Made by a program: the position numbers
Origin: an uncultured Planctomycetales bacterium
Lineage (GTDB): Bacteria; Omnitrophota; Gorgyraeia; Gygaellales; Profunditerraquicolaceae
Assembly (NCBI GenBank): GCA_964487475.1
Contig: CAZAPM010000009.1
Location: 24,941 to 88,940, forward strand
Direction: 5' to 3'
Length of the DNA: 64,000 nucleotides
In this document: piece by piece, positions 42,001 through 45,000 of the stretch
Layout: the number at the start of each line of letters is the position of its first letter
Numbering within the stretch: the first letter of the stretch is position 1

Positions 42001-45000
42001 AGCAGGCGCTGCGCACGCGAATGGGCCTGGCCCCGGACATGTGCACGGTGCTTTTAAGCACGGGCTCTTTCGGCATAGGCCCGTTCACCAAGATCATCAA
42101 AAAATTGCAGGGAAGCTGCCAGTGCATCGCGGTATGCGCCCACAACAAGAAACTCTACCGTCAGCTGCAGCAGGCGGCGTTCCCCCACGTAAAGGTGCTC
42201 GGATTCGTGGATACCATGCATGAGCTTCTGGCTGCCAGCGATATCATCGTGGCCAAGCCGGGCGGGCTGACCGTAGCGGAGGCGCTCTGCAGCCGGGTGT
42301 ACCCGCTTTTCGTGACCGCCATCCCGGGCCAGGAGACCGAGAACCTGCGCATACTCTCTTCGCGCGGAGTGGGAGTGCTGACCCATGCTCCGGAACGGAT
42401 CGCCTCCCTGATCCTCGAATTCCACACCACACCTGCGCTGCGCTCCAGGTTCATGGCCGCCGCGCTTTCCCTGCGAAAACCCAACGCCGCAAAGGACATC
42501 ATAGATGCGTTATGCACAAGTGATCCTCGGCCTGCCGCTTGAGGGGCATTTCGATTACTCCATACCCGAAGAGTGGCCGCAGGATATACCTGCGGGATGC
42601 CGGGTCAGGGTTAATTTCCGCAACCTTCCTGCGACCGGCTACGTCGTAGGGACCAGCGCCGAGGCGCAGGTCGCCCGCACCAAACCCTTACACAGCCTCA
42701 TCGACACGTCGCCCATCATCCCCGGGGACATGCTTTCCCTCGCAAAAACCCTTTCGGAGTACTACTGCTGCAGCTGGGGAGAGGCACTCGAGACCATGCT
42801 ACCCGTCGCTATCCGTAAGGGGAGGAAGGTTGAGAACTTAGGGACGCTCCAAGGGACGCTCCTGAACGGGGATACCCCGCGAAGCGGGGTGTCCCCTGAA
42901 GGAGCGTCCCTAAACGTCACCGTCATCCAGGCGCCGTTTGCCTTGCGCTGGAAACGCTATATCGACGAGATACGCCTGGCGCGCACACAAGGGAAGAACT
43001 GCCTGGTGCTGGTACCGGAGACCGGCTACGCCTCGCACGCCGCAGCGCTTATCGGCAGGGAACTATCGATAGAACCGATGCTCCTGCTTCGCTCAAGCCG
43101 CCAGGAAGCGGATCAATGGATATCCCTGCTAAGCGCGCCTCCGGCAGTCGTAGTCAGCACCCGTTCCGGGGTATTCGCTCCCTTGCCCGGCCTTGGGGTC
43201 ATCATCCTGGAGGACGAGCACGACAGCGCCTATAAGCAGGACCAGGTGCCGCATTATCATGCCCGGGAAGCGGCGATCCTGCGCTCCGGGCAACTCGGCG
43301 CAAAACTGCTGCTTGGCAGTTCCGCGCCCAGCTGCGAGAGCATGTACCTTTCCCGTACCGATGCGCGCCATTACTCGCTGCGAAGCGAGACCGCAGGCAA
43401 GCCCGAGGGCAAAGCCGTGATCAAGCCCGAGGTCAGGGTCGTCGACATGGCCAGTTTCATGTCCATGTCCCGGAACAAACGGGCGATCATGTGCAAATTC
43501 CTCGAAGACACGGTATTCGCCTCGCTTTTGAACAAGGAAAAGATACTGCTTTTCGTGAACAAAAGCGGATACGGTACGGTCAGGGGATGCACCAAATGCG
43601 GAAAACCGGTGCTTTGTCCGGAGTGCGACGTTCCTTTGGTGTACCATTTCCAAAGCAAACTGCTGCGCTGCCACCATTGCGCCCATACCCAGCCGGTACC
43701 TACGCTTTGCCCGCACTGCCAGACGGGATATTTGCGTTATTCCGGTGTCGGCACGGATAAGGTCGCCAACGAGGTGGCCAGGATATTCCCTCAGGCGCGG
43801 CTGCGGGTGCTCGAGGCTTCCCGTACCATGCCGGCGCAGCAGGAGGATTGGGACATTACGATCGCGACCAGCACGGCGGTCCGCCTCAGCGAACAGACCT
43901 CATTCGGACAGGACACTCCCGCTCCCTATGACCTGGTGGGAGTGCTTTCCGTCGACAATTCCCTTAACCGGGAGGATTTCCGCTCCTGCGAGAAAACATA
44001 CGCGCTCCTGACCGGGCTTAAGGAGCTGGCGGGCAGAAAGATGGTGGTGCAAACCTACCTTCCCCAGCAGCCCTGCTTTACCGCGCTTTCCGGAAAACCG
44101 GAAACGTTCTACGACAATGAGCTGCCGGAGCGCGAGCAGCTCGAGCTGCCCCCGTATACCCACCTTTGCCGCATCAGCATACGCAGCAGCTCCCGGGAAA
44201 AGGCGGAGGCTGCCGCGGAACAGATGCAGGCCGCCATGGGAACGGGATTACCGGAGGGCGTTACGGTACGCGGCCTTACTCCGGGTTCTCCCGCGAAACT
44301 GCGGGGAAAATACTATTTCCAGCTGCTGCTGCAGGGGCGCGACCCGCAGTCCTTGGCCGGATACGTAAAATTACATTTACGGCAGAGGCCGCGTTCGGGT
44401 ATAATAGTCACCGCTGATATGGACCCGCTATAAAAGGACCTTATTATAATGAGAACGGTGTTTTTCGGAAGTGCCGGTTTCGGATTGCCCAGCCTGAAAG
44501 CCCTGCACGAGAGCGGAGCGCGCATCGAGTGCGTCGTCACCCAGCCTGACCGGCCCAAGGGCAGGGGGCTTTCTCTCGGCCAGACGGTGATCAAGGAGTA
44601 TGCGCTCGCAAAGCACCTGCAGGTCTTCCAGCCGGAGCGCATCAACACCGGTGAATCCTTAGGCTTCCTGAAAAGCCTGAAGGCTGATCTTTTCGTGGTC
44701 ATCGCCTACGGGCAGCTGCTTTCCCAGGAACTCCTGGATATGCCTTCACTGGGCGCGGTCAACGCCCATGCCTCGCTTTTGCCCCGTTACCGGGGGGCTG
44801 CGCCGATCAATTGGGCTATCGCGCAGGGGGAAAAGGAAACCGGGGTCTCCATCATCCGGCTGGTGCGTCAAATGGACGCGGGGCCGGTGATCGCCGCGCA
44901 GGCCGTGGCGATCGACCCTGACGATACCTGCGTGAGCCTCGAGTTCAAACTTGCGCAGATGACCCCTGCGCTCCTGCAAAAAGCCGTCGGGATCATAAAA

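Follow-up and report, generated by a model that had tools for sequence, protein, structure and literature searches.

A probable REP/REPIN-type palindromic repeat read in frame as part of the PriA linker in an uncultured member of the Omnitrophota

Why does the gene of an essential replication protein carry, within its reading frame, a long palindrome that recurs almost unchanged between genes a few kilobases away? The question is raised by priA, a replication-restart gene, in a stretch of 64,000 nucleotides (nt) from an uncultured bacterium deposited as Planctomycetales and placed by GTDB in the Omnitrophota (assembly GCA_964487475.1, contig CAZAPM010000009.1, positions 24,941 to 88,940 of the forward strand), which we call the window. 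A sequence-only reading of this DNA had noticed a GC-rich palindrome between the N-terminal DNA-binding domain and the helicase core of PriA, had taken it for an insertion of 27 codons that is ~90% identical to a copy downstream of gap, and had likened it to the Rickettsia palindromic elements (RPEs). Our analysis makes it likely that the segment is a non-autonomous palindromic REP/REPIN-type repeat, which the protein tolerates in a linker of variable length.

Read directly, window positions 42839-42912 consist of TA-GGGACGCTCC-AA-GGGACGCTCC-TGAAC-GGGGATACCCC-GCGAAGC-GGGGTGTCCCC-TGAA-GGAGCGTCCC-TA. Judged by its sequence, this is a REPIN-like doublet, in which two inverted arms of ~28 nt, each of the form TAGGGACGCTCC-N4-5-GGGGAYACCCCGC (family A), are accompanied by a duplicated outer module that is not present in the copy next to gap. 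A 79-nt stretch holding the palindrome folds as RNA with -55.5 kcal/mol, compared with -27.5 +/- 3.5 kcal/mol for shuffled sequences (z = -7.9; 0/200 shuffles equal it), and in an inverted-repeat scan this palindrome and two intergenic ones were the three longest hairpins in the window. The element is open in three of its six reading frames, and the frame in use passes through it to give the peptide NLGTLQGTLLNGDTPRSGVSPEGASLN, PriA residues 111-137. The earlier reading was thus right that no stop interrupts the frame, but its count of 27 codons is too high: the repeat-derived part comes to 70 nt, or 72 nt (24 codons) if one flanking TA is counted, with the 12-nt tandem duplication included.

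The window holds three loci with such repeats, in priA and 3' of gap and of rpsA, with the intergenic copies beginning 2-39 nt past a stop codon. Between the priA and gap copies, identity is 91.7% over 60 nt (46607-46665) and 93% over 43 ungapped nt, in line with the earlier estimate, and their common 21-mer, CCCGCGAAGCGGGGTGTCCCC, has three matches in the window at up to three mismatches against 0.00 expected. The gap copy folds with -51.8 to -52.4 kcal/mol (z = -8.7) and looks like a terminator. Units of a second family, B, bear a GTAG tag and form a stem-loop in which 10 of 11 stem positions pair and the loop has 11 nt; the family-B doublet (18492-18601) begins 4 nt past the stop codon of an S1-domain (rpsA-like) gene and folds with -73.5 to -73.9 kcal/mol (z = -8.4). 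The outer tags are GTAG in family B at 18492 and 46570, with TTAG at the other end, and TTAG, TTAG, CCAG and AAAG in family A. TA stands at both ends of the priA copy, the family-B doublet and the gap cluster. We do not take these flanks as proof of a TA target duplication, a point that is undecidable with a dinucleotide that is self-complementary and also lies within the NTAG tag; because they could be either tag or target duplication, the exact element boundaries cannot be fixed.

The conservation of the segment lies in its DNA rather than in the protein, as the earlier reading had anticipated. The palindrome is ~92% identical to its intergenic copy, whereas in a protein search the only 100% match to PriA was the source protein itself and the next-best PriA was at most 44% identical. 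We aligned 120 Omnitrophota PriA sequences (the window protein and 119 homologues), and none of the 119 homologues carries the window's peptide. The nearest relatives, at loci L058 and L059, have plain linkers, with neither the insert nor palindromes of this kind. The identical insert recurs in L020, an independently assembled JGI contig (sample 3300076594) whose priA differs from that of the window by two synonymous changes only, which indicates that an assembly artefact can be excluded and that the gene is intact and constrained.

The host gene encodes PriA. Pfam places PriA_3primeBD at residues 5-100, the Cys-rich region at 371-397 and PriA_C at 550-641 of open reading frame (ORF) 42505-44433, which also matches Klebsiella and E. 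coli PriA structures in the PDB (E = 1e-64); in the 120-sequence alignment the Cys-rich region and the conserved PriA residues are all intact. Omnitrophota genomes share the gene order MGDG synthase - priA - fmt ... gap. Between the LRKGK motif and the conserved R-W of helicase lobe 1, the linker is hypervariable among Omnitrophota PriAs, with 24-58 residues (median 31) and 41 in the window protein. An AlphaFold model built from the alignment reached a mean predicted local distance difference test score (pLDDT) of 90 and a predicted template modelling score (pTM) of 0.90. In this model residues 111-130 have a pLDDT of 52-65, and strand 137-142 is the first of lobe 1; the insert is thus predicted as a low-confidence loop between the 3'BD and helicase lobe 1, where the sequence-only reading had put it.

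Arms of the same kind were met, by sequence match, around genes of a tyrosine transposase in related metagenome-assembled genomes (MAGs; loci L044, L054, L056 and L057). In L044, an ORF of 211 aa (2544-3179) between inverted arm copies (locus 2337-3175) encodes a Y1_Tnp protein (Pfam E = 3e-13), whose best NCBIfam model is 'REP-associated tyrosine transposase' (RAYT) at 66-75 bits over the full length, compared with 19 bits for the IS200 model. Homologues of this protein number more than 1300, and Candidatus Omnitrophota is a frequent label among those with a source name. We fetched three homologue loci (L054, L056 and L057, ~2860-3640), and in each the gene lies between TAGGGGACG...GGGACAC... 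inverted repeats. Across the four loci the RAYT-like genes encode 196-211 aa, and the flanking GGGGACG/GGGACAC inverted repeats are bipartite or tripartite. In the three fetched loci the neighbours are housekeeping genes or, in L057, defence- or mobile-element-like genes (TIR, a phage-integrase fragment and Fic). The window arms align with the RAYT-flanking repeats to the consensus TAGGGGACGCTCC-AnAA-GGGGACACCCCGC (alignment A6); these repeats carry the tags TTAG, CTAG and ATAG, and the TAG of the priA copy stands likewise before GGGGAC in L054 and L057. From this match of arms in related MAGs, we infer that the window element could be mobilised by a RAYT.

We also scanned public genomes and metagenomes (596 Gb) with a pattern fitted to the arm, for which our own calculation gives ~4 single chance matches at equiprobable bases and more in GC-rich genomes. 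Matches in AT-rich contexts were clearly non-random. Two loci (L029 and L046) have the same arms around a 9-10 nt centre, forming intergenic palindromes that lie 15 nt away from a stop codon and immediately next to one (0 nt), respectively, and in six others (L033, L008, L025, L027, L012 and L010) the centre between these arms measures 33-136 nt; a MAG titled Planctomycetia and Omnitrophota MAGs contain many of the arms, single or as inverted pairs. Further copies, for which the sequence-only reading had proposed a search, therefore exist in the window and, with the same architecture, in other genomes. Of 28 pairs compared over 11 distinct palindromes, 8 have changed in a compensatory way, and wherever only one side has changed the pair is G-U. 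The other family-A members have no common flank. Viral contigs gave 0 matches to the arm pattern and thus no link to phages, and a full-text literature search on the arm sequences returned no bacterial paper, only eukaryotic or unrelated matches.

REP, REPIN and BIME elements are mobilised by RAYTs, and in the 'TIRtron' variant RAYT-like (TIRYT) genes have longer inverted repeats (PMC3733652, PMC3116915, PMC2817692). RAYT and TIRYT genes are flanked by REPs or by longer terminal inverted repeats (TIRs) that share GGGGWSAS; REPs occur as singletons and head-to-head dimers directly 3' of ORFs, and their stems contain G-T pairs that suggest an RNA function (PMC3733652). The window repeats are similarly short GC-rich units that occur as singletons and as inverted doublets folding into one long hairpin, mostly directly 3' of ORFs, with G-T pairs in their stems and a putative outer NTAG tag (GTAG in family B). 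GGGGACAC fits the GGGGWSAS motif of TIRYT TIRs, and in the related MAGs the family-A arms flank a Y1 transposase gene with a RAYT model as its best NCBIfam match. In contrast to typical REPs, the family-A arm is bipartite and its tag is TTAG, CCAG or AAAG instead of GTAG. To our knowledge, a bipartite arm family of this type has not previously been described for Omnitrophota.

Intragenic REP dimers are an established precedent: they encode 20-30 aa, are over-represented in replication and repair genes, and were proposed to be tolerated in flexible linkers or loops, with the most intragenic GTAG repeats in Opitutus terrae of the PVC superphylum (Di Nocera et al. 2013, PMC3733652). The priA element is likewise an in-frame doublet, of 24 codons in a 642-aa PriA with all domains intact, and it falls within the bounds used for such dimers (ORF >120 aa, 20-30 residues). 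However, priA is not among the genes of the main text of that work (uvrA/B/D, recBCD, polA, dnaE and dnaE2; PMC3733652), and here one linker has been colonised in several lineages by different repeat families.

The likeness to RPEs drawn by the sequence-only reading stands for the selfish-palindrome behaviour and not for the class. Ogata et al. reportedly described RPEs in Science in 2000 as selfish repeats that lie in frame within essential genes; the priA element resembles them in doing so without disrupting the fold and in having intergenic copies in the same genome. RPE-1 elements measure ~100-150 bp and the RPE families are specific to Rickettsia, and we know of no transposase linked to them. 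The priA element, in contrast, is 58-70 nt long, has another sequence and another host phylum, and is tied to RAYT-like genes, which leaves the likeness behavioural only. RPE-4 and RPE-6 have themselves been classed as (CGTC) REPs (PMC3733652). Of the classes known, REP/REPIN comes closest to the element, ahead of the RPE families of Rickettsia. Miniature inverted-repeat transposable elements with a TA target duplication, such as the Correia elements of Neisseria, are small, have terminal inverted repeats and lie within or next to genes. The priA element shares these terminal inverted repeats, the small size, TA at both ends and the occasional position in or near a gene, but its self-complementary TA may be the NTAG tag, no DDE transposase is associated with it, and the enzyme is of the Y1 type; Y1-type enzymes make no target duplication.

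We hypothesize that a RAYT-like (IS200/IS605-type, HUH/Y1) tyrosine transposase would act in trans on a single-stranded DNA hairpin, made of the two inverted arms joined back to back via the GCGAAGC centre, and would disperse the repeats. Most copies would settle directly 3' of stop codons, where they would be transcribed and could serve as terminator or stabiliser hairpins. One copy would have become fixed in priA because the linker there is disordered and tolerant of length change; this unstructured, length-variable segment, standing in place of the winged-helix domain, would be the only tolerant part of the protein. With a length that is a multiple of three and an open frame, the copy would be read through by the ribosome, and would account for ~24 disordered linker residues, at the cost of part of the original linker. 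Such an insert may well be neutral.

Repeats were also found in the PriA linker and in one other gene elsewhere in the Omnitrophota. The priA linker of L060 (P0016) contains, directly after LRKGK, a complete 66-nt palindrome (8319-8385, -42.5 kcal/mol) that is in frame and encodes KKWGQIYFSEPKAGKINLTPFFEKK. It belongs to a REP family of that genome, with three intergenic relatives within 18 kb (4350-4408, 6836-6895 and 16267-16325) that are near-identical to each other and from which it differs at 4 of 19 arm positions, each change in one arm being matched in the other; no copy follows gap, which lies 6 nt from pgk. The priA linker of L051 (P0032) contains a 24-nt REP half-unit and then a 101-nt segment 98% identical to the gap 3' flank. 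A further half-unit lies in a second variable PriA loop of L051 in a different frame, where it reads GKIDPTPI as against EENRSDPN in the linker, and the P0078 PriA linker, known at the protein level only, has GKIDPTPIS three times. In L052, an in-frame 69-nt palindrome with perfect 26-nt arms (GGGGACGGTTCTATTTTTC...) lies near the 3' end of a gmhB-like HAD phosphatase gene (4813-4881), where 20 residues stand in for 13 of the orthologues; this arm, nearly that of family B, is present in both L052 and L060. Because L060, L051, P0078 and L052 carry in-gene repeats of their own, the window case belongs to a habit that is more widespread among Omnitrophota genomes. Most Omnitrophota priA genes are without any such structure.

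The 101-nt segments of L051 (6350-6450 and 12228-12328) are structured and non-palindromic (-45 kcal/mol) and end in a CCTCC-TTGC-GGAGG hairpin with a T-run. Their pairing of priA linker and gap 3' flank is the same as in the window, in unrelated sequence. The sole Rfam match in L051 11000-12500 was a spurious miRNA.

In at least three lineages, different REP-family sequences thus stand directly after LRKGK, and in two unrelated genomes (the window and L051) the linker repeat is common to the sequence directly 3' of gap, a few kilobases downstream. We nevertheless judge it improbable that repeats preferentially land in, or are copied into, the PriA linker instead of surviving there at random. 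Such a preference could arise from Y1-directed integration, from hairpin-driven template switching in the gene cluster, or from selection for the hairpin or for extra linker in a PriA that lacks the winged-helix domain and the Walker A motif.

Local templated copying is one alternative to dispersal by a transposase, with the priA segment copied from the gap 3' hairpin, or vice versa, by template switching or gene conversion in the course of replication or repair, and a patch of native linker replaced. This would suit the repeats shared by priA linker and gap 3' sequence in two unrelated Omnitrophota genomes whose sequences differ, the short distances between copies (3.7 kb for the family-A palindromes of the window, 5.9 kb for the L051 segments) and the confinement of family A, within the window, to priA and gap 3'. 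It would also suit the three cases in which an element appears to replace native residues, in the window linker, the L051 linker and L052 gmhB (13 aa to 20 aa). However, the copy search covered only DNA near priA and by this ascertainment favours nearby copies, REPs typically land in 3' flanks such as those of gap and rpsA, RAYT-like genes have these arms as their inverted repeats, which gives a dedicated mobilisation route, and the L060 palindrome has no counterpart after gap. On balance, we regard local copying as unlikely. The supposition that the segment is an ancestral protein linker with a chance likeness to intergenic sequence, or an assembly chimera, could appeal to the variability of the linker and to the fact that GC-rich sequence is often open in several frames, but it is scarcely credible, and we consider it refuted by the 21-mer statistics, the independent L020 assembly and the lack of the peptide in all 119 homologues.

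The hairpin might instead be kept for a function in cis with the peptide as its passenger: as RNA it could attenuate or process the mgdg-priA-fmt transcript or lower PriA translation, and as DNA it could be a site for a REP-binding protein. Owing to G-U pairs, the priA hairpin gains 5.4 kcal/mol of stability on the sense strand (-55.5 vs -50.1 kcal/mol), and both intergenic palindromes are likewise more stable on that strand (-51.8 vs -39.6 for the gap copy and -73.5 vs -68.3 for family B); the G-U nature of all single-side changes in the family and the perfect pairing kept by the diverged L060 palindrome point the same way, and REPs have been proposed as post-transcriptional elements (PMC3733652). 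Against this, the priA copy is followed by AAACGTCACC with no U-tract and was not called by a terminator scan, which rules out a role as intrinsic terminator; Rfam covariance models had no match in window 40000-48000 at E <= 1, most Omnitrophota priA genes lack such a structure, and persistence of the palindrome is equally expected of a young insertion. We therefore give this possibility very little credence.

Several observations weigh against a REP/REPIN-type repeat tolerated in the linker, which we still prefer. No relative is close enough to show the empty site of the priA copy. Without the 24 element residues the window linker has 17 residues, below the homologue minimum of 24; because this is shorter than in any homologue, part of the native linker was probably lost or replaced, and simple insertion is not a full account of the locus. 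The insertion proposed by the sequence-only reading thus holds as repeat DNA in the linker and not as a plain addition of 24-27 residues. The family-A arms contain only two 4-5 bp mini-palindromes (GGGG-AYA-CCCC), in contrast to the single stem-loops of 6-13 bp in canonical REPs, and within 64 kb the family has only two full copies and one partial copy. A Pfam scan of 50 of the 56 window ORFs revealed no transposase gene, the score of the RAYT-like protein lies below the curated NCBIfam cut-off of 80 bits, and this protein had no match among PDB sequences. Finally, isolated pattern matches in GC-rich genomes (Streptomyces, Methylorubrum, Mycolicibacterium and others) are uninformative, because ~4 chance matches are expected in 596 Gb, and were set aside as compatible with chance.

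Selfish palindromes within genes are already known as Rickettsia RPEs and as intragenic REP dimers in replication and repair genes. What is new is their extension to the uncultured phylum Omnitrophota and to priA, the bipartite arm family with its tie to a large RAYT-like tyrosine transposase family in Omnitrophota and Planctomycetia MAGs, and the repeated colonisation of one linker. Because this colonisation was independent, it provides a natural test set for whether intragenic REPs are tolerated, targeted or selected, a question that Di Nocera et al. 2013 (PMC3733652) did not settle. For annotation, it also cautions that a lineage-specific 'insert' in an Omnitrophota protein can stem from repeat DNA instead of being a functional protein feature.

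Table 1. Coordinates of priA, the parts of its palindrome and the other repeat copies in the window.
Feature	Position	Strand	Basis or remark
priA, 642 aa: 3'BD, linker, helicase-like core, Cys-rich region, C-terminal domain	42505..44433	+	Pfam, PDB, alignment, AlphaFold (AF2)
Family-A palindrome in priA, 70 nt, GC-rich, in frame	42841..42910	+	~residues 113-136; nhmmer E = 3e-18
Left TA flank (TTAG-GGAC); part of NTAG tag or target TA	42839..42840	+	direct reading
Tandem duplication of outer module, 12 nt (GGGACGCTCC AA), 4 extra codons	42841..42852	+	exact GGGACGCTCC at 42841 and 42853
First outer module GGGACGCTCC, AA, second GGGACGCTCC, TGAAC, GGGGATACCCC	42841-50, 42853-62, 42868-78		order of modules, left of centre
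Centre GCGAAGC, GGGGTGTCCCC, TGAA, GGAGCGTCCC	42879-85, 42886-96, 42901-10		order of modules, centre and right
Left arm: GGGACGCTCC-TGAAC-GGGGATACCCC-GC	42853..42881	+	aligns with inverted repeats flanking RAYT-like genes (alignment A6)
Central GCGAAGC, hairpin loop and closing pairs	42879..42885	+	fold; same centre in gap copy
Right arm: GC-GGGGTGTCCCC-TGAA-GGAGCGTCCC	42883..42910	+	direct reading; arm alignment
Right TA flank	42911..42912	+	direct reading
Family-B doublet: two inverted 36-nt units, 37-nt spacer	18492..18601	+	inverted repeat I1; flanking ORFs and Pfam
Single family-B unit, GTAG-tagged stem-loop, 2 nt past gap stop codon, abuts family-A copy	46570..46606	+	91-95% identical to 18492-18528
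Intergenic family-A palindrome, 39 nt past gap stop codon, then TTTTT (46665-46669)	46607..46665	+	inverted repeat I2
Partial family-A copy: right arm, outer module duplicated (GGGGCGTCCCC twice), TA end	46678..46732	+	nhmmer; flagged terminator-like

The spacer between gap and rfbA (46570-46732) is a mosaic of a family-B unit, a full family-A palindrome, a T-run and a family-A right arm with duplicated outer module. The 10-12-nt outer modules seem prone to slippage, being duplicated in both this partial copy and the priA copy. GCGAAGC stands at the centre of both family-A palindromes (42879-42885 and 46633-46639) and would suit a structure in single-stranded DNA; d(GCGAAGC) forms an exceptionally stable DNA mini-hairpin. 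The window has 58% G+C, compared with 39-44% at loci of the same gene order in other Omnitrophota (L051, L052, L058, L059 and L060), so the source organism is a compositionally divergent lineage.

All 120 Omnitrophota PriAs are without the winged-helix domain, ~125 residues of Klebsiella PriA corresponding to ~44 here (residues ~105-152; alignment A4). They also have no Walker A P-loop, with a consensus LxHDLxGxxRW instead of GxGKT; in the model, only two residues separate strand 137-142 from helix 145-161 at this position. Motif VI (QxxGRxGR) is missing from the consensus (~500-515) and DEExD..YKQ is retained. By analogy with Deinococcus radiodurans PriA (PMC4504706), Omnitrophota PriAs may be ATPase-dead 'pseudohelicases'. 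Two more lineage-specific insertions, ..SETAGKPEGKAV.. and ..EQTSFGQDTPAP.., occupy PriA residues ~296-305 and ~459-470 (~43390-43420 and ~43880-43915), in or near blocks of low pLDDT (291-300 at 53; 461-470 at 79), and no repeat DNA was detected in either.

An arm of the form GGGACGCTCCCCAAGGGGACACCCC lies within an apparent conserved coding region (..AYLKGTLPKGTPLQGEEL..) of four related contigs, one of them titled Eubacteriales (L018 1829-1853, L026 5958-5982, L038 10882-10906 and L042 2634-2658), and could be another intragenic copy or a chance match. In the Planctomycetia-titled MAG (CAZNEE01; L001 3811-3939, L005 6516-6613, L014 6048-6950 and L013 2440-2832), an AT-rich AAAAATTA-like box stands ~25 nt downstream of single arms, and inverted arm pairs bracket short AT-rich spacers or a small gene; here the arm motif may be used as a promoter or operator.

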